Below, one piece after another: positions 38,431 through 62,816 of a DNA stretch of 64,000 nt. The notes under the pieces are model-generated. The model was not told where the DNA came from and did not search any database. It was given only the letters and a program-made list of their open reading frames with translations. Numbering within the stretch: position 1 is the stretch's first letter; each line of letters opens with the position of its first letter. Origin of the DNA: Candidatus Latescibacterota bacterium (GTDB lineage Bacteria; Latescibacterota; UBA2968; UBA8231); NCBI GenBank assembly GCA_965243025.1, contig CBDETY010000003.1:4352001-4416000 (forward strand), written 5' to 3'. The translations under genes and the position numbers were made by a program.

Positions 38431-38547
38431 TGGTCAGCGGCCCCGCCGGCGGGAGGGATCGGTCTTGGTCCCGGCGGTCTCGAAGGCATTGGTCGTCGCT
38501 CTCCTTTGATTTGCGAAAGTCACCGCGCCGGAGAACCCTGGGGCGAA

Positions 38548-40241: not shown

Positions 40242-43200
40242 ATGAACATACTGCGGCTCCCCGGCCCGAACGCCTTGTCCGATTTTCGCCGGGAGGCGCT
40301 GCTGCAGCGCTGCCGGCAGGCCGAGCCCGCGGTCCGGGGGCTGGAGGCGCGCCATTTCTACCTCGTTCACTGGCAGGGCGGCGACCGCGACCGCTTGGAA
40401 GCCCTGGTCTTCGGCGACCCCGCCGGCCCGGGCCGCACCCCCACCGAGGACCCTGACATAAGCGCAGCCACCTCCATCTGCATCGCTCCCCGCCCCGGGA
40501 CCATCTCCCCCTGGTCGACCAAGGCGACCGACATCCTGCGCAACTGCGGCCTGGCCTCGGTCGCCCGCATCGAGCGGGGCACCGAGTACCGCATCCTCGG
40601 AGACGGCCCTTTCTCCCCCGCCTCCCTGCTGCCCCTGCTGCACGACCGCATGACCGAGGCGGTCCTGCATGACGACGCCTCCCTCTTCTCCGAGGTCGCT
40701 CCGCGGCCGCTGCAGCGGGTATCCCTCGCCGAAGGGCCCGCGGCCCTGGAGCGGGCCAACGGGGAGATGGGCCTCGCCCTGTCGGACGACGAGATCCGCT
40801 ACCTGTTCGACGCCTTCGCTGCGCTCCGGCGCGACCCGACCGACGTCGAGCTGGTGATGTTCGCCAACGTCAACTCCGAGCACTGCCGCCACAAGATCTT
40901 CAACGCCGGCTGGACCGTCGACGGCGCCCGGCGCGAGCGCTCCCTGTTCGCCATGATCCGCCACACCCACGCGCGCTGCCCGCAGGGGACGGTGAAGGCG
41001 TACGCCGACAACGCCGGCGTCATCGAGGGCTGGCAAACGCCCTCGTTCCGCCCGGGCTCGGAGGGCCCCTTCGCCTACGGGTACCGCGACCAGCTGAGCC
41101 ACATCCTCTGCAAGGTGGAGACCCACAACCACCCGACGGCGATCTCCCCCTTCCCCGGGGCCTCGACCGGGGTCGGGGGCGAGATCCGCGACGAGGGGGC
41201 GACCGGCATCGGCGGCCAGTCCCAGGCCGGGCTCTGCGCCTTCTACACCTCCCACCTGCGCATCCCGGGATTCGCGCAGCCCTGGGAGCGCGACTTCGCC
41301 GAGTTCCCCGAGCGCTTGGCGACGCCGCTGCAGATCATGACCGACGGCCCCCTCGGCGGCGCCGCCTTCGGCAACGAGTTCGGCCGCCCCAACATCCTCG
41401 GCCTTTTCCGCACCTTCGAGGAGACCGCGGCCGGCCGCTACCGCGGCTACCACAAGCCGATCATGGTGGCCGGCGGGGTCGGCCTGATCTCCGCCGGGCA
41501 GGTCGAGAAGAAGCAGCCGCAGCCGGGGGACCGGGTGGTGCAGCTCGGCGGGCCGGCGATGCTGATCGGCCTCGGCGGCGGCTACGCCTCGAGCATGGAC
41601 AGCGGCAGCAACCTCGCCGACCTCGACTTCGCCTCGGTGCAGCGGGACAACCCGGAGATGCAGCGCCGCTGCCAGGAGCTGATCAGCCGCTGCATCTCCC
41701 TGGGGGACGCCAACCCCATCGTCAGCATCCACGACGTCGGCGCCGGCGGGCTGTCGAACGCCTGCCCGGAGCTGGTCGAGGGGCAGGGGGCCCGCTTCGA
41801 CCTGCGGGCGATCCCCAACGACGACCCGGGGATGAGCCCGATGGAGATCTGGTGCAACGAGGCGCAGGAGCGCTACGTGCTGGTGGTGCGGGCCGCCGAC
41901 CTGGAGCGCTTCGAGCGCCTCGCCCGCCGCGAGCGCTGCCTCCATGCCGTCATCGGCGAGATCACCGGCGACGGCAACTTGTCCGTGTCCGACCCGCTGC
42001 TCGGGGGCAACCCGGTCGGGGAGATGCCGCTCGAGGTCATCCTCGGAAAGCCGCCGCGCATGCACCGCGACGTCAGCCGCGGCGCCGGCCGGCCTGAGCC
42101 CCTCGACCTTTCGGAGGTGACCATCGCCGAAGCAGTCGGCCGTCTGCTGCGCTTCCCCGCGGTCGCCGACAAGACCTTTCTCATTACGATCGCCGACCGC
42201 ACGGTCACCGGCCTGATCGCCCGCGACCAGATGGCCGGCCCCTGGCAGACGCCGATCTCCGACGTCGCGGTGACCGCGGCCTCGTTCCGCGACTTCCGCG
42301 GATCCGCCATGGCCATGGGAGAGCGCGCGCCGCTGGCGCTGATCGACCCGCCGGCTTCGGGGCGCATGGCGATCGCCGAGGCGGTCACCAACATCGCCGC
42401 GGCCCGGATCGGGCCCATCGAAAAGGTCAAGCTCTCCGCCAACTGGATGTGCGCCTGCGGCGAGGAGGGGGAGGACGCCGCCCTTTACGACACGGTCGAG
42501 GCGGTCGGCATGGAGTTCTGCCCGCGGCTCGGTGTCTCTATTCCGGTCGGCAAGGACTCCCTGTCGATGCGGGCGGCCTGGCGCGACAGCCGCGGCGCCG
42601 ACCACTCCATCGCCGCCCCCCTGAGCCTGGTGGTCTCGGCGTTCGCCCCGGTCGCCGACATCCGCGCAACGGTCACCCCGGACCTCAAGCCGGAGGCGGA
42701 CAGCCGCCTGCTGCTGATCGACCTCGGGCGCGGCCGCAACCGCCTCGGGGGCTCCTGCCTTGCCCAGGTCTACAGCCAGGTCGGGGACGAGGCCCCCGAC
42801 GTCGAGCCGGAGGACGTGCGCCGGCTGTTCGCCGCGGTGCAGGAGCTGATTGCCGAAGGGCTGCTGCTCGCATACCACGACCGCTCCGACGGCGGGCTGT
42901 TCGTCGCCGCGGCCGAGATGGCTTTCGGGGCCCGAACCGGGCTGGAGCTGACCCTCGACGGGCTCGGCGAGGACCCGCTGGCGGCGCTGTTCTCCGAGGA
43001 GATCGGGGCCCTGCTGCAGGTCCGCGGCGCCGATCTCGAGCGGGTACTGGCGGTGGTGGAAGCGAACGGGCTCGCGAACTGCACGCACGAGGTCGGCCGC
43101 CCGGACAGCGGGGGAGCCGGACCCCGGGACAGCGACGGACCCGGTCGGCCGGGCAGCAGCGGTTCGGGACCCCAGAACAGCTACGGACCCGCCCCGGAGA

Positions 43201-44597
43201 GCAGCGGCCCGGAACCTCGGAACGGCGGGGACACCCGCCCGGGCAGCGGAGAAACCCGCCCGGAAAAGAGCAGCACCAGCCGCCAGGACAGGGGGGACGC
43301 CGACCCGGGCAGGAGCAGCCCTGACATCGGCGGGGCCGGCCCGGACAGCGGGGGCGCCGGCCAGGACAGGGATGGCGCCGGCCTCCAGGGCAGCGACGAA
43401 CCCGCCCCGGAGAGCAGCGGCCCGGAACCTCGGAACGGCGGGGACACCGGCCCGGGCAGCGGAGAAACCCGCCCGGAAAAAAGCAGCACCAGCCGCCAGG
43501 ACAGCGGGGACGCCGACCCGGGCAGCAGCGGCCCCCTCAGCCCGGACAACGGCGGGGCCGGCGGCACCAACCGTCGCGAGATCGTCATCCTTCAAAACGG
43601 CGCCGAGCTCTTCCGGGAACCCACAGCCGAACTGAAAGCCGCCTGGTCCGAGCTGACCTTCCGCATGCAGGCCCTGCGCGACAACCCGGACTGCGCCGCA
43701 GAGGAGCGGGCCTTCAACGCCGACTTCTCCGACCCGGGGCCGCGCTACGCGGTCGCATTCGACCCCGCCTCGACGGCCCCGGACAAATCCGAAACCAGAC
43801 CACCCGGGACCGGCCTGACGGCTCCGCGCGCCGCCATCCTTCGCGAGCAGGGCATAAACGGCCAGGTCGAGATGGCCGCCGCCTTCGACGCGGCCGGGTT
43901 CGAGGCGGTCGACGTCACCATGACCGACCTGATCGACGGCCGCGCCGACCTCTCCGGGTTCCAAGCGCTGGCCGCCTGCGGGGGCTTCAGCTACGGCGAC
44001 GTGCTCGGAGCCGGCGCCGGGTGGGCGCGCTCGATCCTGTTCAACGAGCCGCTCCGCGACATGTTCGCCGCCTTCTTCGCGCGCCCCGGCACGGTGACCC
44101 TCGGGGTCTGCAACGGCTGCCAGATGCTCGCCCATCTCGCCGCGCTGATTCCCGGCAGCGAGGGCTGGCCGCGCTTCGCCCGCAACCGCAGCGAGCAGTT
44201 CGAGGCGCGCCAGGTCACGGTCGAGGTCGAGGCGACGCGGTCGGTGCTGCTTTCCGGCATGGAGGGGTCGCGGCTGCCGATCGCCGTCGCCCACGGCGAG
44301 GGCCGTGTCGAGTTCCCGGAGGGCGGTTTCGAGCGGCTGTCGGCGAACGATCAGCTCGGAATGCGCTACGTCGACAACCGCGGGCAGGCGGCGGACAGCT
44401 ACCCGTTCAACCCGAACGGCTCGACCGCGGGAGTGGCCGCGGCGACCAGCGACGACGGCCGCGTCACCATCATGATGCCGCACCCGGAGCGGGTCTTCCG
44501 CAACGTGCAGCTGTCCTACCGCCCCGGAGACTGGGACGCATCCGCCTTCAGCCCGTGGATCGAGCTGTTCCGCGGGGCGTATCGTTTCGTGAAGTAA
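40242..44597 (+). CDS. purL: Phosphoribosylformylglycinamidine synthase (large fused form) with an internal repeat insertion
   Basis: NSEHCRHKIFN, KVETHNHPT, GGEIRDEGATG, HDVGAGG, GGFSYGD, GVCNGCQ, MPHPER. Confidence 0.97.
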   Translation: MNILRLPGPNALSDFRREALLQRCRQAEPAVRGLEARHFYLVHWQGGDRDRLEALVFGDPAGPGRTPTEDPDISAATSICIAPRPGTISPWSTKATDILRNCGLASVARIERGTEYRILGDGPFSPASLLPLLHDRMTEAVLHDDASLFSEVAPRPLQRVSLAEGPAALERANGEMGLALSDDEIRYLFDAFAALRRDPTDVELVMFANVNSEHCRHKIFNAGWTVDGARRERSLFAMIRHTHARCPQGTVKAYADNAGVIEGWQTPSFRPGSEGPFAYGYRDQLSHILCKVETHNHPTAISPFPGASTGVGGEIRDEGATGIGGQSQAGLCAFYTSHLRIPGFAQPWERDFAEFPERLATPLQIMTDGPLGGAAFGNEFGRPNILGLFRTFEETAAGRYRGYHKPIMVAGGVGLISAGQVEKKQPQPGDRVVQLGGPAMLIGLGGGYASSMDSGSNLADLDFASVQRDNPEMQRRCQELISRCISLGDANPIVSIHDVGAGGLSNACPELVEGQGARFDLRAIPNDDPGMSPMEIWCNEAQERYVLVVRAADLERFERLARRERCLHAVIGEITGDGNLSVSDPLLGGNPVGEMPLEVILGKPPRMHRDVSRGAGRPEPLDLSEVTIAEAVGRLLRFPAVADKTFLITIADRTVTGLIARDQMAGPWQTPISDVAVTAASFRDFRGSAMAMGERAPLALIDPPASGRMAIAEAVTNIAAARIGPIEKVKLSANWMCACGEEGEDAALYDTVEAVGMEFCPRLGVSIPVGKDSLSMRAAWRDSRGADHSIAAPLSLVVSAFAPVADIRATVTPDLKPEADSRLLLIDLGRGRNRLGGSCLAQVYSQVGDEAPDVEPEDVRRLFAAVQELIAEGLLLAYHDRSDGGLFVAAAEMAFGARTGLELTLDGLGEDPLAALFSEEIGALLQVRGADLERVLAVVEANGLANCTHEVGRPDSGGAGPRDSDGPGRPGSSGSGPQNSYGPAPESSGPEPRNGGDTRPGSGETRPEKSSTSRQDRGDADPGRSSPDIGGAGPDSGGAGQDRDGAGLQGSDEPAPESSGPEPRNGGDTGPGSGETRPEKSSTSRQDSGDADPGSSGPLSPDNGGAGGTNRREIVILQNGAELFREPTAELKAAWSELTFRMQALRDNPDCAAEERAFNADFSDPGPRYAVAFDPASTAPDKSETRPPGTGLTAPRAAILREQGINGQVEMAAAFDAAGFEAVDVTMTDLIDGRADLSGFQALAACGGFSYGDVLGAGAGWARSILFNEPLRDMFAAFFARPGTVTLGVCNGCQMLAHLAALIPGSEGWPRFARNRSEQFEARQVTVEVEATRSVLLSGMEGSRLPIAVAHGEGRVEFPEGGFERLSANDQLGMRYVDNRGQAADSYPFNPNGSTAGVAAATSDDGRVTIMMPHPERVFRNVQLSYRPGDWDASAFSPWIELFRGAYRFVK
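43104..43565 (+). repeat. In-frame minisatellite inside purL: degenerate 21-24-bp units plus a ~130-bp block duplicated at a 213-bp offset
   Basis: PAPESSGPEPRNGGDT.PGSGETRPEKSSTSRQD.GDADPG occurs twice (~43188 and ~43401). Confidence 0.92.
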
Positions 44598-47452: not shown

Positions 47453-47580
47453 GGGATCCTGGGCTCATGAGGAAGGAATACGGCAGTTTCCAGCTTGGCA
47501 TGCTCACGGCATCGGGTGCATGCGCGAACTTCGTGCGCTCTCCGCAGTTGTCAACCGGCCTGCTCCGCCGACTCTGCACC

Positions 47581-48306
47581 CTAATCCCAGCTCGGGATCG
47601 GGGTCTGCAGCGGATCGTCGATCCAGAGAAAGCGCCCGTTGACGTCGCTCTCGACGATGTCGATCACGAGCCTGGCCGCCTTCTCCGGCGGATCCCCTCC
47701 CGTTTGCTCCACCCACTCCACCCAGTCGTGGTAGCCGCTCTCGCTGACGGTGCCCATCTTGTCGCGGATATCCGCCCACATCGAGGTCTTGACGTCGCCG
47801 GGATGGATGACGTTCGCCGTGACGCCCGTCCCCTCCAGTTCGGCCGCAAGGTGCCGGGTGAACTGGTTGAGAGCGACCTTCGCCGTGCCGTAGGCGCTGT
47901 TCAGCCGTCCGGGCGTGTGCAGCGACGCCGCGGACGAAAGGTTCACGATCCGGCCCCAGCCTGCGTCCAGCATACCGCCGAGGAACGCGCGGGACACGAG
48001 ATAGGGCCCCACCGCATCAATCATGAGCGTTTCGACCCATTCTTCGGGGTCGCTGTCCTGTACGAGGGCGATCGGGCCGAAGACCCCGGCGGCATTGACG
48101 AGAACGGTGGGCCGGCCGAGCTCGGCTTCGACCGCGGTTTTGAGGCGGTCGACATCGGCCGGGTTCGAGACATCCGCGGTGAATCGCGCCAAGCGGCGCG
48201 CGACGGTTGCGACGGCGAGGCCGCGCGCCTCCAGCGCATCTGCGATTGCCTGTCCGACGCCGCGGCTGGCTCCAGTGACGACTGCGACGTGTCCTTCGAG
48301 GTTCAT
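47581..48306 (-). CDS. Short-chain dehydrogenase/reductase
   Basis: TGASRGVG, NAAG, YGTAK. Confidence 0.9.
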   Translation of the reverse strand: MNLEGHVAVVTGASRGVGQAIADALEARGLAVATVARRLARFTADVSNPADVDRLKTAVEAELGRPTVLVNAAGVFGPIALVQDSDPEEWVETLMIDAVGPYLVSRAFLGGMLDAGWGRIVNLSSAASLHTPGRLNSAYGTAKVALNQFTRHLAAELEGTGVTANVIHPGDVKTSMWADIRDKMGTVSESGYHDWVEWVEQTGGDPPEKAARLVIDIVESDVNGRFLWIDDPLQTPIPSWD

Positions 48307-48381
48307 GTTCTGGTCTCGGCTGTCACCATGCGATTGGGCATTTGATTGTCTGATTTCAAGCGGCCCCCCTCCTTCATGAAT

Positions 48382-48412
48382 AAAAAGGAAAGCCTCTCAC
48401 AGCAGGCTTTCC
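48382..48412 (-). terminator. Intrinsic terminator-like hairpin at the left edge of the low-GC island
   Basis: ggaaagcct/aggctttcc stem followed by T5 on the minus strand. Confidence 0.65.
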
Positions 48413-49000
48413 GCTTCAGGGCGGGTTCATCAAAGTAAAGTCCCACCTTCACCGTCCTGCCCCCGCTTCCCACATCATACACACCATAGCCTTTTCTCCG
48501 GTCGGCCGCACTGCCCGGGCGTTGGGCGGTGAGGAACAGTCGCGGCCTGCAGGGGGGTGTATCAACCCCGAAGCAGGTGAACGCCAGGCTTGAATTGGCA
48601 GTGGAAGGAATTTTGAGCCCCCAAAGGCGTGCATGTGGCTGTCCCGCCGTGGATTGGCCCTCGAAAAGTATCACCGAAATGTCACGGATAGGGGATTGTT
48701 TGTCACCGACAAATTCCTTTCTAATGCAAGCAAAACCTAAACCGGAGTTCTGAATTTCCAAAATAATCCTGCCGATTCAGGAACCGGATCCCCGGTCGCC
48801 GGACGACCCTGGAGGAATCCCTGGCCTTTTGGTGGTCAAAGTGTCGAAAGACACGTATCGCGAGTAGGTGTCGTGTGGGAACGATCGAGACCCTTGGCAC
48901 CCCTTCCCGACATCGGCCTAACGGCGTCAATGTGGGGGTTCCTGATCAAGGTTACCGGATTGGAGACAGCACTTTACGCGGACACACCACATTCAGGGAC

Positions 49001-49045
49001 GGTGAGGGCGGCCACGATCCGCAGGCGCCCGCCACAGGCCGGGCA
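49001..49045 (-). mobile_element. Remnant of an IS91/ISCR-like transposase C-terminus (copy 1)
   Basis: Minus strand reads CPACGGRLRIVAALT. Confidence 0.6.
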
Positions 49046-49157
49046 GCCGCTGGGGGAAGAAGGAGCGGTGGGGTTTCGTCCCGGCAGCACAGTCGAGATC
49101 GGCGCCAACGGCCGGTGGATGGACTTCAAACCAATCTATAAAAAGGGAGCATGTGTT

Positions 49158-50612
49158 ATGACAGGCATAGGATACCCTTCATTCCGCACTCAGCTTAGCC
49201 ATCGGGTCCGTCGGATGCCAGCCTGCCTGGTCTTTCTCTTGCTTTCGCCCATCGGTCTTACAGGGCAGGAAGCCGGACAAGTGGAACTCTACACCCAGGA
49301 CGGCGTCCAGACGCGGTCCTACAATTCGCCAACAGTCGTGGACGTGGGCTTACCCACCCCGGTGGACATACCCTCGGCCGTGACCGGAACCGGACAGGGG
49401 ACGCGCCTGACCGAGGTGGAATTCGTGGTACGGGAGGGGGAAGGTGGTCGGGTAGCACAGAGCATACCCAACAATGGAATAGGCGGTATCACGGAGGATC
49501 TAGCGGGCAATCTGTGGGTGGCAACCGGAGGAGGCCTCAGCCGCTTCGACGGCCAAACCTGGACGACCTTCACTGGAGAGGATGGTCTTTCAAGCCGCGG
49601 AATCAGGGATGTGGAAGTGGATCTACAGGGGCATGTGTGGGCTATCGATGGGGCCGGCATCAGCCGCTTCGATGGTCAGAGGTGGCATCATTACAAAGGC
49701 ATGCCCAATGGGATAGATCTGGCTGCGGCGCCGAATGGGGATATCTGGTATGTCGCCGAATTCAAGCTTTATCGTTTCGATGGGGAGGACTGGTGGAAAT
49801 ACGGCTATGAAGATGGGATTCCTGATCGAGCCGAAATTGAACGGATAACAGTAGACCGGTCCGGTACCTTATGGGCCGCTTTTATCATACATGGCTTAGA
49901 TACAGAGGCTGAGCCAGATTGGTATATCCTAACCTCATTTGACGGCCACCAGTGGACCTCTTATCAGCTCTATGGGGGAGCAAAAGGGTTTTTTGAGGAT
50001 AGCAGGAATCGACTCTGGGTGGGATCAAGTGATGGCTTATATGTGAGGGAGAATCAGACGTGGCGTCGATACGACAGAGGCAGAAGGCGTTGGGTAGGAC
50101 ATATAAGTATGGCGGAATATGAGGATGGCAAATTCTGGATAAGGAATGGGAACGAATTTGGTTGGTTGGATGGAACCAAATGGACCTATTTTCCTTGGGA
50201 GGAATTCAGGCCTGGGGTTCTGTTGATGGATAGCCAAGGCAATCTATGGATCACCTCGCGCAACGGACTGTTGAAGTGGGCATCCAGGGATCTCCCTACG
50301 CATATTGAAGGACAATCTGACGCCACCGAACCTCGCTCTTTCAACCTGATGCAAAACTATCCGAATCCCTTTAATCGGGAGACCCATATTGGGTTTCACC
50401 TGGGGAAACGGGTGAATCTTTCCCTGCAAGTATTCAATGCGACCGGCCAATCGGTGGCCACCTTGATGGCCGGAGCCTACCCAGCCGGAGCCTATCAGAC
50501 CCATTGGGACGGGCGGGATGATCAGGGGCAGGCAGTGGCCAGTGGGCTCTATGTCTACCGGTTGAATACGAATTCCTGGGAGTCCAACCGCAAGATGGTT
50601 CTGGTCAAATAA
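49158..50612 (+). CDS. Secreted beta-propeller (two-component-regulator-propeller repeats) + FlgD-Ig protein, copy A
   Basis: D..GNLWVAT..GLSRFDG..W repeats; QNYPNPFN...WDGRD..G..VASGLY. Confidence 0.85.
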   Translation: MTGIGYPSFRTQLSHRVRRMPACLVFLLLSPIGLTGQEAGQVELYTQDGVQTRSYNSPTVVDVGLPTPVDIPSAVTGTGQGTRLTEVEFVVREGEGGRVAQSIPNNGIGGITEDLAGNLWVATGGGLSRFDGQTWTTFTGEDGLSSRGIRDVEVDLQGHVWAIDGAGISRFDGQRWHHYKGMPNGIDLAAAPNGDIWYVAEFKLYRFDGEDWWKYGYEDGIPDRAEIERITVDRSGTLWAAFIIHGLDTEAEPDWYILTSFDGHQWTSYQLYGGAKGFFEDSRNRLWVGSSDGLYVRENQTWRRYDRGRRRWVGHISMAEYEDGKFWIRNGNEFGWLDGTKWTYFPWEEFRPGVLLMDSQGNLWITSRNGLLKWASRDLPTHIEGQSDATEPRSFNLMQNYPNPFNRETHIGFHLGKRVNLSLQVFNATGQSVATLMAGAYPAGAYQTHWDGRDDQGQAVASGLYVYRLNTNSWESNRKMVLVK

Positions 50613-50623
50613 GGGGCGCATAA

Positions 50624-53600
50624 ATGCTTATCGTGAAAATCAATCTTGAAATGGGTATTAAAGGACGTTATTCGAAAATATCCACTCTTGTGTTGCTGTT
50701 GGTTCTTAACACGGCGCTGCATGCGGAGTGTAGAATTGGGGTTTGGCAGCCGGGAGGGCTAATCGGGATAGGAGCAAACGCAGATACCTCTTTTACCCAA
50801 ACCGACGTGGATAGTCTCGAGTCGTTGGGAATTGATCTGCTGATTAATACGCCAGGAGTCAGTTACGATAGAAACAGAGTCCAGGATTTCGAAGAAAGTA
50901 TTATATCCCAGTGGAATGGTAGTGGAGGGTTTGTCGTGCATAAGGCAGCGGAAGACATCGCCCATCCTAACCCAGCCAATACATAGTATGATAATTTGAC
51001 GCGTTTTGCCGGGGATTTAGACTCGCTCAATGCTGGATATCACAATCCTTTAACTCCAGATGAGGTGGATCTCCTGGACGTAGTAGTTGATTCATTGGAA
51101 AGCAAGTGGGGCGATGAGGATGCTTTCTACGGCTACCAGATCGGCCATGAAATCGACTATCAGGGACACGGTATTTACGATTCGGACACGTATGACAACA
51201 TGGTCACCGTAATCAATACTATTCGGGACCACGATACCGAGCACCGCATTATTGCCATCGGGAACACAACAGACTCACGCTGGACATCGACGGAGCAGGA
51301 CAGCTTTCGTACCCACTTCTTTGGTCCAGACTCTCTATCGGGACCTGCCAATATCTTTATGCAGGAGATCTATGAGCTCCACCCTAATCATGACAATGAA
51401 ACTGAAGTCCAGGAGGAATTCAGGGAGATTATTTCCGGGTTGGGCGAAATTGGAGATATGGTGCGCACGGCGCTCAATGAAGATCGCAAGGCGGAGTGGC
51501 ATTTTATCCCCAATGTAGCAGATCAGTGGAACGACAGTTGTCGAGTTCAGTTTGGGCGAGGTCCAACCTATGCGGAGTTGAAGGCCCAGGTGAACCTCGC
51601 GTTATCACGGGGCGCCAAGGGGGTCACCTACTTTCTTTATACAAGCTCTGACCCTGATACGTCTATTGCGGCCAATTGTATAGATGACAATTATCGATAC
51701 GATGGCTTAGTTGAGCATGCGAATCCGAATCGCAATAAGAGGGGTCCTCACTGGAATAATGTAGAGATGGTCAACGACACGCTCCGAGTCCTTGGAGATG
51801 TACTCGCTCCTTTAACCTGGGAAGAGGCCTTTCCCGGTAGCGACATTCCAGCCGGCCGCTTTGTGGAAGCCGTGGGGGCCAACGATGATTCCCTTGAGTT
51901 TGGTAGGTTTACCGATTCGGACGACAATTACCGAGACTATTTGCTGGTTTTCAATAAATACGATCTCTGGGCTGGTACAACCATTCAAACCGTGGATATA
52001 ACCATAGATGTGGATGACCTGGAGTCGTCGGATAATGATCGAGGCATGTATGTTGTTACCGACGAACACTCCGGAAACCGTCAGGTGCACAGTACGGACA
52101 GCAACGGACGGTTTGTGCTGAAGGATATCACCTTGGCCGCGGGCGCTGCCAGGCTGTTCAAAATCGAGGAAACCGCCAGCCTGTCCGATACGCTGTCCAA
52201 CGAAGAATTGTGGTCGGGGGACATAGCGGTCAGCGGGGATGTAACCGTACCCTCTGGAGCGACACTCACAATAGAGCCTGGTTCGACGATCCAATTTGCG
52301 GCGGACTCGGATGACCAGAGCGGCCCCCCTTACCCGGGTTTGTGCGCGATCAAAGTACACGGAACGCTCGTAACGGAAGGCACCAGTACGAACCAGATTA
52401 CCTTTGAATCGGATGCGACCTCTCCAGAACGCGGCGATTGGGATGGGATTCTCTTCTGGGACAGCAGTGTCGACTCCCTTTGCAGGGTCAATCACGCCGT
52501 AATTAAGCATGCAAAAAAAGGCATTTTTACCTCATCGGCGACGCCGGCCGAGCTGAACAACAACGAGATTTCAGACTGCGTGTATGGCATCCAGGGCAAC
52601 ATGGTCAGCCCAACGATTCAGGGCAACACGTTGACGGATAATCTCTACGGGCTCTATTTGTACAATACCGAACAAGGCACCGGCATCCGGGACAATACTA
52701 TAACTGACAACGCAACGGTGGGACTCTACCTTTCAAACTGCTCGGTGCCCATATACGGCTGTACTGTCAACGATAACAATAAGGGCGTCGAAATCAGGGC
52801 GGAAACGACGTCGACGTTGGATAGTTGCAGGGTCGATTCAAGCACCTATTGGGGGATCTACGCATATGGCAACAATACCGATCCCGTGTTCGAGAACTGT
52901 CGGATTGCCCATAATGACACCGTCGGATTGCGCATGTACAATGAGACCGAGCCCGAGCTGGACGACCCTGACCACCCCAACGACTTTTACAGCAATGGCT
53001 CCTATGAACTCTTCCTGAAGGGGGATTCCCGCCCCTGGCTGGACGATGCCTTCTCAGGGCTCAACGACATTGTCCCAACGGGTTCTGGCTACGCGGTGTA
53101 TATCGATCAATCCGCGAATTACGATACGCTCTACGCACGGAACAACTATTGGGGTAGTAACAGTCCTTCTTCTTCCCTATTCTCGCCGGCATCCTACATC
53201 ATTTATTCGCCTGTCGACACTACCGAAAACTTCATCGGTGCCCCAAAGGTTGTCGTAGATGGTGTTGCTGTGCAACTGGAGCAGGCCCGGGCACTGGAGA
53301 ATGCGGGACAGCTGAGGGCGGCGTCGGAAGTTTACCGAGAAGTGGTCGAGGACCACCCGGACCATCCCAAGGCGCCGCGCGCGCTGAGTCGACTCTACAC
53401 CACGTGGCGCAACAGTGGGCAAGACATGCTAGCATTTTCCGAGCTTGCCCGTGATCTTGAACAACAGGCGGGCACTCCGGAAATGCTCCGGAAGGCTCGG
53501 GCGTGGAAGCTGCGGAGTTTGCTGAATGCTGGACGGATTGCCGAGGCGCTGGAGGGCTATCGGGGGATAGCGGCGCCGGCGCCAACGTCACCCGAGGGCG

Positions 53601-54106
53601 GATGGGCTCGGATCAACATAGCGGATGTCTACCACCACTACCTGTTCGATATTGAAGCGGCGCGAGCCCAATATGAGGCGATAGCGGCTGACTTTGCTGG
53701 AGAAGAGGAAGGCGAGCTAGCCCGGATGGCGCTGGCTGATTTGGATGGGTGGGTAAGTATGGGACCTGCCAGTCCGGAGTTGGTGGATTACGCCACACAA
53801 GAAGAGCTCCCCTTGGAGGAGGAGCCCTCGGGGGTTGTTCTGGAGGCCCTGCCGAATCCGGCCAACCCGGCGATGGCTCTTCGGTTCACGCTGCCCGAGG
53901 CTATGCAAGTAGAGCTTGTGATCTTCAACATGCTGGGGCAGAAGGTGCGGACGCTGGTTCCCTTTGGACCGTGGCTGGCGGGGGGGCATAGGGTGGTATG
54001 GGATGGCAAGAACAGCCAAGGGCGCTCAGTGAGCACCGGGGTCTATGTGGCCAAACTCCTCGCCGGGAAGCAGGTCAAGAACCGGAAGGTGCTGATCCTC
54101 CGGTAG
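50624..54106 (+). pseudogene. 1160-codon surface protein (GH-like TIM barrel, beta-helix, TPR, FlgD-Ig) interrupted by one in-frame TAG at 50984-50986
   Basis: ORFs 50624-50986 and 50996-54106 share a frame; the signal peptide is only in the first part. Confidence 0.8.
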
Positions 54107-54243
54107 TCAGGCGATGCGACCGGCGGCGATCCGGTCCAGCACGGCCTGGGCGCGGGCTTCGGCCGACGGATGCCCGTCGGTCTCGACCACGACCCCCCGC
54201 ATGCCCCGGTGGGGTGACAGGGTCGCCTGGTGGTAGGCCAGGA

Positions 54244-54326
54244 ACCTACCCCCTCCAGATAGGTCCGGATCGAGGCCGGATCGGTGAGGGCGGCCAGATC
54301 CGCAGGCGCCCGCCACAGGCCGGGCA
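54244..54326 (-). mobile_element. Remnant of an IS91/ISCR-like transposase C-terminus (copy 2, 1-nt deletion)
   Basis: CPACGGRLRI / AALTDPASIRTYLEGVG. Confidence 0.65.
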
Positions 54327-54438
54327 GCCGCTGAGGGACGAAGGATCGGTGGGATGTCGTCCCGGCAGCACAGTCGAGATCGGCGCCAACGGCCGGTGGA
54401 TGGACTTCGAACCAATCTATTATGGGGAAGCATGTGTT

Positions 54439-55905
54439 ATGACAGGCATAGGATACACCTCATCTCGCACTCAGCTTAGCCATCCGGTCCGTCGGATGGG
54501 AGCCTGCCTGGTCTTTCTCTTGCTTTGGCCCATCGGTCTTATGGGGCAGCAAGACGGACAGGTGGAACTCTATACCCAGGACGGGGTACAGACGCGGTCG
54601 TACAATGCCCCCACCGTTGTGGATGTGGGCTTGCCCACCCCGGTGGACATACCCTCGGCCGTGACCGGAACCGGGCAGGGAACGCGTCTGACCGAGGTGG
54701 AATTCGTGGTACGCGAGGGGGAAGGTGGACGGGTAGCAAAGGGCATACCCCATAATGTGATTGGGGGGGGTATCGCGGAGGATCTAGCGGGCAATCTGTG
54801 GGTGGCAACCAGTGGCGGACTCAGCCGTTTCGACGGCCAGACGTGGACGACTTTCGACCAGGAGGACGGTCTTTCAAGCCGCGGAAGCGGAATATGGGAT
54901 GTGGACGTGGATCAACAGGGGCATGTATGGGTTAGCGATGGTGTCGGCATCAGCCGCTTCGATGGTCAGAGGTGGCGTCATTACAAGGGCATGTCAAATG
55001 GGATGCATATGGCTGCGGCGCCGAACGGGGATATGTGGTTTGTAGTCAGTCAGCAGCTCTATCGTTTCGATGGGGAGGATTGGTGGATATACGGCTATGA
55101 CGATGGGATTCCCGATCGAGCCCATATTCACCAGATAATAGTAGATCGGGCCGGTACTATTTGGATGGATTTCATCATTCACGACTTAGACAGGGAGGCC
55201 GAGCCAGACTGGTATAGCCTTATATCCTTCGACGGACGCCAGTGGATGGCTTACCGGCTCCATGGGGGGGGGCCAAAGAACTTCTTTGTGGATAGAAGGA
55301 ACCGACTCTGGACGGGTTCAAATGAGGGTTTGTACGTTAGGGAGAATCAGACGTGGAGACTATACGAGCGAGACGGAAGACGCTGGGTCGGATATATAAG
55401 TATGGCGGAAGATGAAGCTGGCAAATTCTGGATAAGGAATGGGAACGAATTTGGCTGGTTGGAGGGAACCACCTGGACCTATTTCCCTTGGGAGGAATTC
55501 AGGCCTGGGGTTCTGTTGATGGATAGCCAAGGCAATCTATGGATCACCTCGCGCAACGGACTGTTGAAGTGGGCATCCAGGGATCTCCCTACGCATATTG
55601 AAGGACAATCGGACGCCACCGAACCTCGCTCTTTCAACCTGATGCAAAACTATCCGAATCCCTTTAATCGGGCGACCCGAATTGGGTTTCACCTGGGAAA
55701 ACGGGTGGACCTTTCCCTGCAAGTATTCAATGCGACCGGCCAATCGGTGGCCACCTTGATGGCCGGGGTCTACCCAGCCGGGGCCTATCAGACCCATTGG
55801 GACGGACGCGATGATCAGGGGCAGGCAGTGGCCAGTGGACTCTATGTCTACCGGTTGAATACGAATTCCTGGGAGTCCAACCGCAAGATGGTTCTGGTCA
55901 AATAA
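54439..55905 (+). CDS. Secreted beta-propeller + FlgD-Ig protein, copy C
   Basis: Clear paralog of 49158-50612. Confidence 0.85.
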   Translation: MTGIGYTSSRTQLSHPVRRMGACLVFLLLWPIGLMGQQDGQVELYTQDGVQTRSYNAPTVVDVGLPTPVDIPSAVTGTGQGTRLTEVEFVVREGEGGRVAKGIPHNVIGGGIAEDLAGNLWVATSGGLSRFDGQTWTTFDQEDGLSSRGSGIWDVDVDQQGHVWVSDGVGISRFDGQRWRHYKGMSNGMHMAAAPNGDMWFVVSQQLYRFDGEDWWIYGYDDGIPDRAHIHQIIVDRAGTIWMDFIIHDLDREAEPDWYSLISFDGRQWMAYRLHGGGPKNFFVDRRNRLWTGSNEGLYVRENQTWRLYERDGRRWVGYISMAEDEAGKFWIRNGNEFGWLEGTTWTYFPWEEFRPGVLLMDSQGNLWITSRNGLLKWASRDLPTHIEGQSDATEPRSFNLMQNYPNPFNRATRIGFHLGKRVDLSLQVFNATGQSVATLMAGVYPAGAYQTHWDGRDDQGQAVASGLYVYRLNTNSWESNRKMVLVK

Positions 55906-55926
55906 GGGGCGCATAAATGCTTATTT

Positions 55927-56240
55927 ATGACAGGCATAGGATACACCTCATCTCATACCGCACTCAACTTAGCCCTCTCGTTCGCCGGATGGCAGCCCGC
56001 TTGGTCTTTCTCTTGCTTTGGCCCATTGGTCTTATAGGGCAGGAAACCGGCCAGGTAGCGCTTTATACCACCACCGGGGTTGAAATGCGATCTCTCAATG
56101 CGCCGGCGGTAGTGGATGTGGACCCGCCCATACAAGGTGGAAGTGGCATCAGCCGTGACCGGAACCGGGCAGGGGACGCGTCTGACCGATGTGCAGGCGG
56201 TTGTGAGGGAGGGAGTCGGCGGCACTCAAGCGGCAGGACT
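55927..56240 (+). pseudogene. Third, frameshifted and truncated copy of the propeller gene 5' part
   Basis: atgacaggcataggatacacc start; LVFLLLWPIGL and SAVTGTGQGTRLTDV in different frames. Confidence 0.85.
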
Positions 56241-56293
56241 AGCTCATGAGAAGGTTGGCCGGAAAGGGCTCCTGATTGATCCAGATGGCGATT

Positions 56294-56568
56294 GGCATGG
56301 TGCCTGGCCGCCTGCAATGGCCGGACCACCCGTGCTCGCATCCATCGTGGCCCGGAAACCTGCTCTATCCCCTGTGTTGGGCAGCGCACGGGAGTGTGAA
56401 GATTCCCTCACATTCCCACTGATTTCCGGCGTGGCCCCGTAATACGACTTGGACGAATCGATGGCCGTACGCCCGGCCGTCCCTTTTCCGGTTCACGGCG
56501 GCGGTAGGCGGAAGGGCGGACAGGTGCTGTGGCCGGCATGGTGCCTGACCGCCAGCAATGGCCGGACC
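56294..56568. repeat. 34-bp direct repeat pair (56294-56327, 56535-56568)
   Basis: ggcatggtgcctg(g/a)ccgcc(t/a)gcaatggccggacc, two mismatches. Confidence 0.85.
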
Positions 56569-56820
56569 CCTGCGGTACCGCCGACGTGGGAAGGGCGGGA
56601 AATACCCAAAGGCCCAACGCCTGGTCAGCGGCAGCGGAGTTTCGCAGACTCTTTTGAAGCCGCTTGCAGCGGGTCAAGCACTGCGGTCGAAAGCGACTCC
56701 CGAGTGGAGCCGCACTATTGGACTGGCCTCCAGGACAGGAAGCGACCGCACCGGGATGGAGGGGAAGCGCACCGCCGGAGCCCCTGCCACCGGGAGTGAA
56801 GGCCGCCCTACGAAAGGCAA

Positions 56821-57816
56821 ATGATGACTGACAGGATTCGCTGGGGATTCCTCGCTACCGGCTGGATGGCGGAGATGTTCGCGGAGGGCATGTCGGTGGT
56901 GCCTGACGCCGAGATCGCCGCGGTCGGCTCCCGCGCCCCCGATACCGCCGACGCCTTCGGCGACCGCTTCGAAGTCCCGCGGCGCTACGGCTCGTACGCC
57001 GAGCTCGTCGCCGACCCCGGCATCGACATCGTCTACGTCAGCAGTCCGCACCCCTTCCACCGCGAGCACACCCTGCTCGCCCTGGAGGCGGGCAAGCCGG
57101 TGCTGTGCGAAAAGCCGTTCGCCCTGAACGCCGGCGAGGCCGGTGAGATGATCGCCGCGGCGCGCTCGCGCAAGCTGTTCCTGATGGAGGCGATGTGGGC
57201 CCGCTTCATCCCGGGGATGATCAAGGTGCGGGAATGGCTCGACTCCGGGGCCATCGGCGAGGTGCGCATGCTCGACGCCGAGTTCGGCTTCCGCGCCCGC
57301 TTCGATCCCACGCAACGGCTGTTCAACCCCCAACTGGGAGGCGGCAGCCTGCTCGACATCGGCATCTATACCCTCGCCTTCGCCTCGATGGTCCTGGGGC
57401 CGCACCCCGACCGCGTCGAGGCTTTGGCCGAGATGGGGAGGAGCGGGGTCGACGACCAGGCGGCCGTGCTGCTCGGGTACTCCGGCGGGCAGATCGCCGT
57501 GCTGCGCAGCGCCGTGCGCACCACCTTCGAGGGCCGCGCCCGCATCCACGGAACCGGGGGCATGATCACCCTGGACCCGCCCTTCCACAGGACCGAGCGC
57601 GTCACCCTCGAGTCCGGTGGGCGCACCGAGCGCTACGAGTTCCCGCTGCGCCGCAACGGCTACGAGTTCGAAGCGGAGGCGGTGAACGGGTACCTGCGCG
57701 CCGGCAAGCTCGAAAGCGACGCCATCCCCCTCGACGAGACCCTCGCGCTGGTCCGCCTCATGGACCGCATCCGCGGTATATGGGGGCTGAAGTACCCCGC
57801 CGAGAGGAGCTCCTGA
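56821..57816 (+). CDS. Gfo/Idh/MocA oxidoreductase
   Basis: RWGFLATG.MA, VLCEKPF, MEAMW.RF, GGSLLDIGIY. Confidence 0.92.
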   Translation: MMTDRIRWGFLATGWMAEMFAEGMSVVPDAEIAAVGSRAPDTADAFGDRFEVPRRYGSYAELVADPGIDIVYVSSPHPFHREHTLLALEAGKPVLCEKPFALNAGEAGEMIAAARSRKLFLMEAMWARFIPGMIKVREWLDSGAIGEVRMLDAEFGFRARFDPTQRLFNPQLGGGSLLDIGIYTLAFASMVLGPHPDRVEALAEMGRSGVDDQAAVLLGYSGGQIAVLRSAVRTTFEGRARIHGTGGMITLDPPFHRTERVTLESGGRTERYEFPLRRNGYEFEAEAVNGYLRAGKLESDAIPLDETLALVRLMDRIRGIWGLKYPAERSS

Positions 57817-60299: not shown

Positions 60300-60617
60300 G
60301 TCGGGTAAAGCAGCGCGGGCCCAGTCAGGCAGGTTCGGTGAGGCAACCGCTGGCGTTTGATCCGGGCCTGGCAGCCGGGCCCAGGGTTCCGCTGACTGCT
60401 CCAATCGGCCAGGCTCGGAAGCTGCTGCCCTGGCTCCGCTGACAACTCGGACCGGCCAAGCTCCGATACGGCTTCCGGGGGTTCGCCGGCCTTCCGTTCA
60501 CCAAGGCCAATTCTCGGTCAGCGCTTGCCTCCGGACCCTGCGGCGGACCATCTCGGAGATCTCTTCGATGGAGCTGTCCGGTCTGAGCGGCGGAAGCCGG
60601 ACCTCGGACTCCGGGGA

Positions 60618-62399
60618 CTACTCCTCCGGATCGGTAGCCATCGCCTCTCGCCGGACCCTGGCATTGCGGGCCCGCCCGGCAAGCTCATCCAGGTCCCATC
60701 CTGCGAGCGCGATGTCGGCTTTCAGCTCCTCCGACCACTCCTCCGGCGGGGTGGCCGTTACCCGCTCCACCACTCCCCGATGGAAGTCGCTCAACATGGC
60801 GTTGCCGGATGTGCGCTTGCGAACCGCTTCCATTTTTCGGCGCCCTTCCTCGGCAGTCAGTCCGCCGTTTTCAACTGCCGCCCGGATGCGGCGCACGGTT
60901 GCTTCGAGATTTGGACCACTGCCCTCCCGGCGCTTGCGGACCGCCGCGGCGATCTCTTCGATGGTGCTTTCCGGATCGAGCGCGAGAAGCCTGGCCTTCA
61001 GCTCTGCGGACCATTCGTCCGGGTCGGCAGCCATCGCCACCCGCCACAGCCTGCGCTTGCGGACGCCCTCGGCGATCTCTTCGATGGTGCTGTCCGGATT
61101 CAGCGCGAGGAGCCGGGACTTCAGCTCCGCGGACCACTCGTCCGGATCCGCAGCCAGCGCATCCCGCCAAAGCCTGCGCTTGCGGACCGCCTCGGCGATC
61201 TCCTCGATGCTGCTGTCCGGCTTGAGCGCGAGGAGCCGGGCCTTCAGCTCCGCGGACCATTCGTCCGGATCCGCAGCCAGCGCTTCTCTCCAGGCTCCGT
61301 CCTTCTGACCCGATTCCGTTGCGGCTTCGGCCATCGCCGGGTCGTCCCCCTGGCTGGCGTCCTCACTGCCGTGGGAGGGAAGCGTCACGGCCATCAGGGG
61401 GCCGAGCAGGACCACCGCCAGCACGCGGCCTCGCGTTCCCATCCGGCGGGCACCGCCGCCGAGCGACCTGCGGATCCTCAGGGCCAGATCCGATTCTGTT
61501 GCTGAAAAAGCGTTCACGAGGGGGATTCTCCTTGTCAGGGGGTTAGAGTTGGCTGTCAGCAGGGCGGCGCGGGCAAGACCCCGCGCATAGGTTTCGGAGC
61601 GGCCGGTGGCGCATACGACGAGATCGTCGCACGCCTGTTCCGCTTCCCGCCGCAACATGCAGCCGCAAAGCCATACCGCAGGGTGGAAGAAAAACAGGGC
61701 GGCGATCAGCCGGTGCAGCAGCAGCACGAGGTTGTCCCAGCGGCGCACGTGCCCCAGCTCGTGCATGAGGACCAGTGAGAGTTCATCCGGCCGAAGCTTG
61801 TCCGCGAAGTCGGCGGGGAAAACAATGACCGGTCTCCGGATGCCCACCACCATCGGCAAGCCGACGGAATGTGACGTCGCCACCTCGACTCCGGGGTGGC
61901 AGTCGAACGCCTGACGCGCCTGACGCATGGCATCGAAGAGCGGACCGCCGCGCTGCACCTGCGCCTGCCGCCGCAAGCGCCAGAGGATTCCGCAGCCGAT
62001 CACTATCCGCCCGATGAGCAGCGCCGCCCCTGCAATCCACAGTAACGCCCCCCAGCCGGCTGCAGTTAGTCCCACGCTGCTTGCGGCAACTATCGGAAAA
62101 GCAGCTGCATGCGCCGTTGGTTGCTCGACAGGCAGAATTGCGAGGGCATCCCGGCCGTACTCAGCCAGCGGCACCAACGGGGTGAATGGCGTGAAAAGCG
62201 TATAGGGGGAGCTGACAACGAGGGCGACAACCGGCTTCAACAGCACGACGACCCACAACAGGTGGCGCAGGGCCGGCGACTTGATCCGCAGCAGGCGGTT
62301 GACTGCCAGAACCACCAGGGCCAACACCCCCAGCTCGACACTCAGCTGCCCGAACCACCCGAACAGGTCGCTGCCCAGTCCGTTCAAAGCTGCATTCAC
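60618..62399 (-). CDS. M56 metallopeptidase (BlaR1/MecR1-like) with C-terminal helical repeats
   Basis: GTG overlapping the blaI stop; HELGH, FFFHPAVW, E.ACD; TM then repeats. Confidence 0.88.
   Translation of the reverse strand: MNAALNGLGSDLFGWFGQLSVELGVLALVVLAVNRLLRIKSPALRHLLWVVVLLKPVVALVVSSPYTLFTPFTPLVPLAEYGRDALAILPVEQPTAHAAAFPIVAASSVGLTAAGWGALLWIAGAALLIGRIVIGCGILWRLRRQAQVQRGGPLFDAMRQARQAFDCHPGVEVATSHSVGLPMVVGIRRPVIVFPADFADKLRPDELSLVLMHELGHVRRWDNLVLLLHRLIAALFFFHPAVWLCGCMLRREAEQACDDLVVCATGRSETYARGLARAALLTANSNPLTRRIPLVNAFSATESDLALRIRRSLGGGARRMGTRGRVLAVVLLGPLMAVTLPSHGSEDASQGDDPAMAEAATESGQKDGAWREALAADPDEWSAELKARLLALKPDSSIEEIAEAVRKRRLWRDALAADPDEWSAELKSRLLALNPDSTIEEIAEGVRKRRLWRVAMAADPDEWSAELKARLLALDPESTIEEIAAAVRKRREGSGPNLEATVRRIRAAVENGGLTAEEGRRKMEAVRKRTSGNAMLSDFHRGVVERVTATPPEEWSEELKADIALAGWDLDELAGRARNARVRREAMATDPEE
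60927..61292 (-). repeat. Three 123-bp (41-aa) tandem repeats in the M56 gene
   Basis: WR.A.AADPDEWSAELK.RLLAL.P.S.IEEIA..VRKRR; anchors at 60951, 61074, 61197. Confidence 0.95.
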
Positions 62400-62803
62400 T
62401 TCCGGCCTCCCTTCCTGCGCTCGAGGGCCCGGTCCAGCTCCTGCCGGATCGCGGCCAACTCCTCGTCGCTGAGCGACTGCCCGTCCAGCAGCTGACTGAC
62501 CAGGGCCTCGGCCGAGCCGGAAAAGAACGAGTCGATCACCTCGCCAAGGGAGCGCCGCCCCATGTCCTCCCGCGTTACCACCGGGCGGTAGAGATCGGAC
62601 CGGCCTTCCCGCTCCGAGGCCAGGAAGCCCTTGTCGCGCAGGATGCGCATGACGGTCAGCACCGTGTTGTAGGCCATCGGCTTGACGGTATTCAGCCGCT
62701 CCTGCACCTGCCTGACCGCCGCGGGGGACTCGTCCCACAGGACGTTCATGATCATGGTTTCGAGCGGGGTCAGCTTCCTGCCGGGTTTTTCTCCGGTCGC
62801 CAT
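62396..62803 (-). CDS. BlaI/MecI/CopY-family repressor
   Basis: LT.LE..IM.VLW, AYNTV.T.M..L..KG, FF.GS...LV..L. Confidence 0.93.
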   Translation of the reverse strand: MATGEKPGRKLTPLETMIMNVLWDESPAAVRQVQERLNTVKPMAYNTVLTVMRILRDKGFLASEREGRSDLYRPVVTREDMGRRSLGEVIDSFFSGSAEALVSQLLDGQSLSDEELAAIRQELDRALERRKGGRK

Positions 62804-62816
62804 TTGGCAGCCCTTT

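Follow-up and report, generated by a model that had tools for sequence, protein, structure and literature searches.

A conserved propeller and glycosidase-like gene pair in a decaying tandem array at an IS91-scarred site of a Latescibacterota genome

How does a pair of genes for secretion-tailed proteins come to be repeated in tandem beside scraps of a transposase gene, and is such an array a mobile module or the product of local amplification? The question is raised by a low-GC segment of a Candidatus Latescibacterota genome (6.8 Mb in 3 contigs, 65% G+C), contained in a 64 000-nucleotide stretch of contig 3 (4352001–4416000), hereafter the window. The segment occupies window positions 49000–56240 and has the order IS91 scrap–A–B–IS91 scrap–A'–(8 nt of B)–A'' (decayed), where A encodes a propeller protein and B a glycosidase-like protein, both with tails of the type IX secretion system (T9SS). 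A preliminary description of the window, made from the sequence letters, had given this order, and every element that it described lies where it was placed.

The account that is considered probable here is that A and B form a secreted pair that binds and cleaves glycans, and that this pair, once multiplied to three or more units at an IS91-scarred hot spot, is now decaying. What is new is an unassigned GH42-like family with a conserved propeller partner. The kind of system to which the pair belongs, secreted glycan-degrading machinery, is known, and the locus itself is an ordinary amplification-and-decay site scarred by IS91.

The A–B operon in other genomes

The pairing of A with B extends beyond the window. 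Among 23 other loci examined (all 20 non-self matches from 168 genomes of the phylum and 3 further records; two other records, from the same contigs as G001 and G160, were left out), an A-type gene lies directly upstream of a B-type gene, on the same strand, in 8. Linkage is found in seven of the eight loci in which the B domain is at least 34% identical, and the eighth (L035) ends at a contig edge. The order is A–B in L055 and in G012, where the two genes are separated by 10 nt, compared with 11 nt in the window; A–A–B in G141, G152, G137 and G160 (the same locus as L057); two weak A-like genes followed by B in G020; and an A-like gene (26%) followed by a B-like gene (29%) in G001. Additionally, 14 of the 29 non-self B homologues share an equal-sized longest contig with a listed A homologue, several of these contigs being only 4–25 kb long, and this agreement supports the linkage indirectly. 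A–B is a conserved operon.

The two-gene unit proposed in the preliminary description is thus a real one, with A directly upstream of B in eight other genomes, and it is also amplifiable, as had been suggested, being repeated here and with A independently duplicated (A–A–B) in another genus. The same description had treated the IS91 scrap as a part of the module and expected A homologues to be preceded by the scrap and followed by B-like genes. The second half of this expectation is correct for the eight loci; the first is not, because none of the 8 other A–B loci contains IS91 sequence.

Several further records bear on the distribution of the pair. Spread across phyla was considered and rejected: the ‘Gemmatimonadaceae’ record L057 is the same contig as G160:C101, which is filed in the window's own family. 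The label of L057 (‘Gemmatimonadaceae bacterium’) conflicts with that of G160:C101 (L043), and the other records of that family are Candidatus Latescibacterota. The ‘Armatimonadia’ record consists of one 3-kb contig, from a metagenome bin. Eleven distant stand-alone B-like genes (25–30% identity) have no A-type gene within their 1.5-kb flanks, which are too short to exclude one. Co-folding of the G012 proteins (A 38–405 with B 30–520, each with its own alignment) scored 0.00 against a mark of 0.32 and gives no verdict either way.

Predicted folds, export and functions of the two proteins

Both A and B have the features of T9SS cargo with a type A C-terminal sorting domain. Hydrophobic N-terminal leaders, read directly from the translations, are putative signal peptides, and the FlgD-Ig tails noticed at the outset correspond to C-terminal matches to Pfam FlgD_ig (44.2 bits for A and 31.6 bits for B, cut-off 27) and to Por_Secre_tail; TIGR04183 gives 30.4 and 23.2 bits, respectively (cut-off 23). 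The genome encodes the matching machinery, with two PorU homologues (621.5 and 615.1 bits, cut-off 420) and SprA_N (107.8 bits, cut-off 27), and contains at least 150 frames with similar T9SS tails. A literature search, with supplements outside its scope, found no article linking Latescibacter with type IX secretion and none linking the two-component regulator propeller with T9SS.

B is a single frame broken by one in-frame TAG, at codon 121. It consists of a putative signal peptide, a GH42-like barrel with a beta-sandwich (approximately residues 35–520), a right-handed beta-helix, tetratricopeptide repeats (TPR) and the T9SS tail, and its Pfam matches are Beta_helix, NosD, TPR and FlgD_ig. 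In the alignment with the G012 homologue (48% over 540 columns, E 1e-140), similarity continues past the stop. The N-terminal domain (520 aa) matches no glycoside hydrolase (GH) model in Pfam at E ≤ 0.01 and nothing in NCBIfam or among PDB sequences at E ≤ 1. The fold was modelled on the intact G012 homologue (AlphaFold2, 34 sequences, pLDDT 81, pTM 0.85), and the model has a (beta/alpha)8 barrel at residues 37–390 and a beta-sandwich at 394–513.

The leading Foldseek matches of this model are all glycoside hydrolases (GH5, GH51, GH66 and GH39). In VIA-align, the top structures are the GH42 enzymes 4ucf (Z 20.2, rmsd 4.0, 347 residues aligned), 5xb7 (Z 20.1) and 3tts (Z 20.1), GH42 comprising beta-galactosidases and alpha-L-arabinopyranosidases; next comes the GH164 beta-mannosidase 6t5o (Z 19.8) and then GH5; like the model, the GH42 and GH164 structures combine a (beta/alpha)8 barrel with a following beta-sandwich, with 347–365 residues aligned at Z 19.8–20.2. 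In the Atlas, the protein-language-model neighbors of the domain are clusters named ‘GH42 N-terminal domain’ (0.93). B differs from these enzymes in sequence (10–13% identity and no match to Pfam Glyco_hydro_42), in its T9SS secretion and in its fusion to variable beta-helix, fn3 or cadherin modules.

In clan GH-A enzymes, the acid/base, a tyrosine and the nucleophile are located at strands 4, 6 and 7. In the 34 B sequences (G012 model numbering), E286, W287 and N237 are invariant and H170, E171, E242 and Y244 nearly so; the model places them at strands 4, 6 and 7, with E171 and E286 in or at strands 163–170 and 284–292. The conserved acidic residues of B at strands 4 and 7 are candidate counterparts of those of GH42 and GH164; at strand 4 B has His-Glu, the usual motif of these enzymes being Asn-Glu. 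The window copy keeps H175/E176 and E291/W292, judging from its alignment to the G012 homologue. The N-terminal domain family is small: 30 proteins, the window's own included, in a set of 5.8 billion, and 138 representatives at E ≤ 0.001, of which 28 at E ≤ 1e-30, among 1.84 billion. The C-terminal modules of the homologues vary (fn3, cadherin, Calx-beta and beta-helix). Going by the modelled fold and the conserved residues, the most likely identity of B is that of a retaining glycoside hydrolase, from a GH42-like family that is small and undescribed, with candidate catalytic His-Glu at strand 4 and Glu at strand 7. Of the two characters initially offered for B, a giant surface adhesin or a glycan-active protein, the glycosidase-like fold favors the second, and adhesin is the poorer description.

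A consists of a leader, a beta-sandwich (40–100), a propeller (108–374), a disordered linker and the T9SS C-terminal domain (409–482). In the AlphaFold2 model (81 sequences, pLDDT 82.7), the propeller has seven four-stranded blades, and Pfam Reg_prop (PF07494; scores of 36.1 bits, that of A, and 42.4 bits, cut-off 20.4) identifies its family. The closest structure in Foldseek is PorZ of Porphyromonas gingivalis (5m11, E 9.8e-13), and matches with E from 3.5e-12 to 7.6e-11 are found to the Bacteroides glycan-sensing domains BT3049, BT4663 (heparin/heparan sulphate) and BT4673. These domains of hybrid two-component sensors, which bind oligosaccharides, share with A the seven-bladed Reg_prop propeller. 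Their solved chains, however, are 736–750 residues long and have a two-propeller build, whereas A is a single propeller with no transmembrane, kinase or regulator part and with an N-terminal beta-sandwich and a T9SS tail instead. Given this lack of signalling parts and the presence of the tail, A is predicted to be exported to the cell surface and not to act as a signalling receptor. It is most likely, on the strength of the modelled fold, a cell-surface glycan-binding protein with a single Reg_prop propeller of the Bacteroides oligosaccharide-sensor kind.

The resemblance to PorZ suggests another role, namely that A is a PorZ-like accessory that attaches or processes B or other cargo, with B chiefly an adhesin whose barrel is not catalytic. 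Like PorZ, which is the top Foldseek match of A, the protein combines a Reg_prop-like propeller with a T9SS C-terminal domain, there is a weak match to the NCBIfam PorZ model NF052228, and adhesin-like modules (fn3, cadherin, Calx-beta, beta-helix) make up the variable C-terminal parts of the B homologues. The NCBIfam match, however, covers only residues 359–467 (the last blade and the tail) and, at 28.9 bits, falls far short of the cut-off of 260; A has 484 residues and one propeller compared with the 748-residue, two-propeller chain of 5m11; and the A family numbers 300 proteins at E ≤ 1e-20, of which genomes often contain several, unlike a single-copy part of a machine. A is multi-copy and located beside an enzyme gene and not with secretion machinery, and catalysis by the barrel is favored by its conserved Glu/His/Tyr/Trp set. 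Such an accessory role is improbable.

Under the preferred assignment, A and B together would capture and cut an extracellular polysaccharide. Pairs of this kind are familiar from the polysaccharide utilisation loci of Bacteroidota, in which surface glycan binders accompany glycosidases (SusE/F with SusG). The proposed logic is alike, with neighboring genes for a surface binder and for an enzyme that is secreted or located at the surface, but the protein families are unrelated, A and B would be anchored by T9SS tails and not by lipidation, and no SusC or SusD was seen beside any locus examined. If the assignment is correct, B adds to the glycoside hydrolases a new, small family with a conserved partner gene, and A provides a first functional hint for the many proteins of Latescibacterota-type genomes that combine a single Reg_prop propeller with a T9SS tail. 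No major concept is changed, and the value of the finding is moderate.

Two features of the A family stand apart from these assignments. The N-terminus carries a conserved extension of approximately 20 residues with Arg-Arg before the hydrophobic core (MIGVCNxSSxIRLRRML... in the family, MTGIGY...HRVRRM at window positions 49158–49270), and its M1 is nearly invariant; the extension is perhaps an unusual, possibly Tat-like, export signal for T9SS cargo. One relative of A (P0035; 48% identity, E 3.5e-189) has 843 residues, about twice the usual size, and perhaps has two propellers as in PorZ.

Anatomy, assembly and strain variation of the array

The array consists of direct, colinear repeats with a period of 5281–5293 nt (Table 1). 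The repeat finder aligns 49016–49315 with 54297–54596 at 91% identity and adds further colinear blocks up to 50273/55566; in blastn, 49000–50631 and 54282–55924 are 88.2% identical over 1647 nt. The second copy of the leader is 93–97% identical to the first, and the A and A' proteins are 85% identical. A third, weaker copy (55925–56222) follows 1.49 kb further on, with 76–100% identity depending on the block; over 269 nt, A'' is 78.8% identical to A' and 76.6% to A. The sequence after A' had initially been read as matching the A–B junction and then passing through TTAT into a third A start. The match does run up to ATGCTTAT, and a third A start follows, the DNA past A' reading ...TAAGGGGCGCATAAATGCTTAT and then TTATGACAGG..., which is the beginning of A''; the A'/A'' junction, however, is blunt, and TTAT is present twice and thus is no shared microhomology.

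Table 1. Features of the array and its surroundings (window coordinates)
Feature	Position	Strand	Remarks
Left part of the island	47456–48999		Short-chain dehydrogenase, ORF and non-coding DNA
Short-chain dehydrogenase	47581–48306	−	Pfam adh_short
ORF without family match	48303–48761	−	No other copy in the genome
IS91 scrap rem1	49000–49052	−	53 nt; blastn and minus-strand translation
Leader of A	49053–49157	+	105 nt, repeated before A'
Gene A	49158–50612	+	484 aa
Gene B	50624–54106	+	1160 codons, in-frame TAG at 50984–50986
Spacer, B stop to rem2	54107–54244		138 nt, no IS91 match
IS91 scrap rem2	54245–54335	−	91 nt, 1-nt deletion
Second leader copy	54336–54438	+	See text for identity to the first
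Gene A'	54439–55905	+	488 aa, intact
Stub of second B (ATGCTTAT)	55917–55924	+	Preceded by the same 11-nt A–B spacer; direct reading
A'', decayed third A head	55925–~56240	+	~105 codons, stops and frameshift
Non-coding terIS-side IS91 scraps	56294–56568	−	blastn
Right flank, core synteny resumed	56594–57816	+	Gfo/Idh/MocA oxidoreductase at 56821–57816

Could such an array be produced by the assembler, from repeats collapsed or expanded out of mixed strains? The assembly is of the metagenome type, with an estimated contamination of 6%, and the copies are alike enough to mislead assemblers. However, the 12% difference between the copies suffices to resolve them, and contigs from public runs of four studies (X1, X5, X6 and X8), compared over 48800–56800, bridge the junctions. 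The left edge is bridged in X1 (48800–49045), X6 (48800–49127) and X8 (48800–49069); the end of A, the whole of B, the spacer and rem2 in X1 (50602–54326, 0 differences) and X8 (50588–54274, 64 differences); and the stretch from the end of A' through the B stub and A'' to the right flank in all four runs, up to 56800 (from 55895 in X1 and X6, 55840 in X5 and 55881 in X8). Misassembly, which the preliminary description had named as fatal to its reading, is excluded on this evidence, and an artefact is scarcely conceivable. X1 may be the source sample, whereas X8 is clearly a different strain. Contig depth at rem2 is raised (20–69), which indicates that this sequence is multi-copy in the samples. 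The array sequence occurs in sponge and marine metagenomes.

The same contigs settle the nature of the stop in B. Position 50985 is G in X6 and X8, giving TGG (Trp), and A in X1 and X5, giving TAG. Because other strains have TGG, and Trp is the consensus residue of the B family at this site, the stop is a true nonsense mutation, polymorphic between strains, and not a recoding signal; the terminal stop of B is itself TAG. Small-scale variation is also seen elsewhere in the array. The X8 contig lacks 5 nt at 55947, so that a frameshifting insertion of A'' is missing in that strain. A' contains runs of eight G (54763–54770) and nine G (55264–55272) that A lacks; both are now in frame, and slippage would silence A'. 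The nine-G run is identical in the contigs of X1, X5 and X6.

The dN/dS ratio of A and A' is 0.26, which implies that both are under purifying selection. The overall dS of 0.32 is unevenly distributed, from 0.55 in the middle of the propeller down to 0.03 in the last blade, a pattern suggestive of gene conversion at the 3' end or of parts that differ in age. In the maximum-likelihood tree, A and A' are sisters (100/100 support) and the A1 and A2 copies of genus g14 fall in a clade of their own, which implies more than one duplication of A.

IS91 scraps, the insertion site and the history of the array

The scraps upstream of A and A' are indeed remnants of an IS91-family element, as had been proposed from the peptide CPACGG encoded upstream of both genes; it is read on the minus strand and belongs to the C-terminal coding sequence of the transposase. 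Rem1 encodes ..CPACGGRLRIVAALT, and rem2 encodes ..CPACGGRLRI/AALTDPASIRTYLEGVG, with a 1-nt deletion. The reference is a near-complete element of the same-genus genome G001 (L061, ~10054–11829; transposase with one frameshift), whose ends, oriIS at ~1790 and the terIS end at 20–22, were set from dozens of copies. In blastn, rem1 corresponds to element positions ~1473 to 1422 (88.7% identity to the G001 copy) and rem2 to ~1510 to 1420 (91.3%, and 87% to the own-genome copy L012). The scraps match the 3' ends of two truncated Y2_Tnp ORFs of the same genome and are homologous to the 3' coding region of the transposase of the IS91 family, the Y2/HUH rolling-circle elements that include IS91, IS801, IS1294, ISCR and miniature right-end derivatives. 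Each retains only ~17–30 C-terminal codons, with neither the zinc-binding N-terminus nor the Y2 catalytic domain.

The ends of the scraps are informative. The inner breakpoint (~1420) is common to both and the outer ones differ; both lack the oriIS-proximal ~280 nt, homology stopping at 1473 and 1510. The break in IS91 homology at 54245 is sharp in all 14 comparisons of that stretch, and the spacer 54107–54244 occupies the place of the last ~280 nt of IS91, oriIS included. This spacer matches no IS91 copy and nothing else in the genome, and short peptides read from 54107–54250 have no second copy in the genome. The leader 49053–49157 likewise has no match to the IS91 element; an alignment of 7 upstream regions confines its similarity to those of A homologues elsewhere to the final ~20 nt (GGAG..TGTTATGA), which comprise the ribosome-binding site and start, and the upstream regions of these homologues contain no IS91 sequence. 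At the right edge of the array, 56294–56416 corresponds to element positions 143 to 21, a fragment of the terIS end, and 56482–56568 to positions 196 to 110, and the 75 nt between these two pieces resemble DNA flanking the G001 copy. With transposase scraps on the left and terIS pieces on the right, A, B and A' lie inside the outline of a former IS91, where the transposase gene should be. The initial proposal placed the cassettes on the terIS side, as in IS91/ISCR capture. They do not lie beyond terIS, as such capture would have it: they are located between the transposase 3' scrap and the terIS scraps, and the body of the transposase is missing.

The element has many copies in the genus. There are 45 element matches in G001 and 55 in G002, another genome of the genus; most share the oriIS end and are variably truncated at the other. 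This constant oriIS end with a variable other end, together with co-mobilised adjacent DNA, is a hallmark of the IS91 family, for which many copies with such ends are described in the parts of the sources consulted (PMC13181058; PMC3189936). In G001 and G002, the copies cluster on one strand, 3–8 kb apart. In one G001 cluster, a 590-nt IS fragment and the 765 nt adjoining it occur twice at a distance of 3148 nt, with 100% identity between the two copies. Unique lower-GC DNA separates the copies in G001:C10:352000–388000 (L062/L063) and G002:C1:6288000–6316000 (L064/L065). These clusters look like ISCR-style island building, and no A, B or T9SS-tail gene was detected in them. The window's own genome yielded two partial Y2_Tnp matches (profile positions 84–178 and 111–179 of 183) and no full-length IS91 transposase. 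At L012 (G000:C3:3438319–3441528), the truncated IS91 transposase ORF is interrupted upstream by a gene for a DDE-type transposase, which has a 100% identical inverted copy of 1565 nt 5 kb away; low-GC ORFs follow.

The array sits in an island of ~9 kb (window ~47.5–56.6 kb) that the sister genomes lack. Synteny on the left ends at 47455 in the comparison with G002 and at 46642 with G001, and on the right it resumes at 56594 or 56818, in flanks that are ~91–92% identical to the same-genus genomes. At this site, the flanks enclose 1.4 kb in G001, free of IS91 sequence, and 5.3 kb in G002, where the DNA is different and includes two IS91 scraps. Close A homologues were not found in G001 and G002, and the short-chain dehydrogenase of the left part has no match at E ≤ 1e-40 in G001, G002 or G012. 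The different contents in G002 and G001 indicate a variable, IS91-associated site, with the A–B array specific to the species. The low G+C that had been noted for the array is real: it drops to 0.50 at 50–52 kb, compared with 0.65 for the genome and ~0.68–0.70 in the flanks, and third-position G+C (GC3) of A and B is 0.59–0.61, compared with 0.81–0.83 in the G012 homologues. This composition would fit acquisition from a lower-GC donor, and no donor was found.

Did IS91 itself build the array? Rolling-circle (one-ended) transposition could have brought A–B and made the tandem copies, the oriIS parts being lost later. The scraps are true IS91 sequence, in one orientation and with the same inner breakpoint in both units; pieces of the terIS end border the array on the right; the corresponding site of G002 is occupied by different DNA and IS91 scraps; same-genus genomes contain abundant oriIS-ended, variably 5'-truncated copies in same-strand clusters; the identical G001 pair shows that units of fragment plus adjacent DNA move in this genus; and, in the portion of the source consulted, termination in the IS91 family fails in 1–14% of events, upon which adjacent DNA is mobilised (PMC13181058). 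However, both scraps lack the oriIS-proximal part and differ in their outer breakpoints, the cargo is flanked by the 3' scrap and the terIS scraps instead of lying past terIS, none of the eight other A–B loci has IS91 sequence, the genome yielded no full-length transposase, its other IS91 clusters are free of tandem cargo repeats, and the A'/A'' junction is a plain deletion joint. Compared with IS91 and ISCR elements, the window pieces are internal, with no oriIS or catalytic domain, and the cargo is a secreted enzyme operon and not resistance or virulence genes. Rolling-circle construction is a minor but genuine possibility. A role of IS91 in the arrival of the island is plausible. The attribute ‘mobile’ in the preliminary description is, in contrast, circumstantial, as the scraps are internal, oriIS is missing and the genome lacks a detectable full-length transposase; present-day mobility of the window's units is very unlikely.

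The preferred history is one of tandem amplification and decay. A unit of IS91 scrap, leader, A and B would have been amplified in tandem to at least three copies, probably by unequal recombination between directly repeated copies. This is the simplest route and is in line with the literature on IS801, whose fragments, in the part of that source consulted, mostly act as homology for recombination (PMC3189936). One deletion would then have removed the second B together with the head of the third unit, as suggested by the B stub abutting the A'' start, after which the third A decayed. In A and A', the propeller faces diverged, whereas the 3' ends may have stayed almost the same through gene conversion, and B in this strain would have gained its nonsense mutation by a TGG-to-TAG change.

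Several observations weigh against this account and against the functional assignment that goes with it. The left breakpoints of the scraps (1473 and 1510) differ, which one simple duplication does not explain. The dS between A and A' reaches the level found between species of the genus, but the island is missing from the sister species, so that the amplification may have taken place in a donor. In this genome B is broken, and the pair cannot work here as proposed unless A and A' act alone. The N-terminal domain of B is only 8–13% identical to its structural matches, and the catalytic assignment depends on positions in a predicted model; for both families, enzyme activity and ligand are predicted from folds, residues, tails and gene order. 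The linkage also has exceptions: G008 has two A homologues without B, one located before an M6-like peptidase and the other on a contig that ends just after it, and distant B-like genes in G048 and two Ignavibacteriota records have no A-type neighbor. The Ignavibacteriota gene has the same build of barrel, beta-helix (and TPR) and tail, but behind a different tail-bearing protein.

The neighbors of the A homologues in G008, a Spherulin4-like protein and the M6-like peptidase, are similar to B only in the secretion tail, and the proteins upstream of the Ignavibacteriota genes (~570 aa, with T9SS tails) match neither the A profile at E ≤ 10 nor Reg_prop.

A more far-reaching version of events would make A–B an undescribed T9SS cargo pair that spreads both vertically and laterally, with B as a new GH42-related family, A as its obligate partner in substrate capture or docking, and a prolific IS91-family element, a builder of ISCR-like islands, as the agent that moved and amplified the operon. 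This combination is unlikely; if true, it would be a case of rolling-circle gene capture outside the context of antibiotic resistance, in an uncultured marine (sponge-associated) symbiont. Independently of the mechanism, the locus is a compact record of amplification and decay, with three units, a deletion joint, putative gene conversion and a polymorphic nonsense allele, and the dozens of oriIS-anchored IS91 fragments in the sister genomes are of interest for research on rolling-circle transposons.

Other features of the window lie outside the array. Lowered G+C (0.58–0.63) is also found at 31000–40000, upstream of a purL-type gene (40242–44597), and in G001 an IS91 copy adjoins the purL-type gene. 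To the right of the island, 60543–61328 contains four copies of a 123/147-nt tandem repeat (67–73% identity) within a minus-strand ORF (60618–62819) that matches the BlaR1-type peptidase M56.

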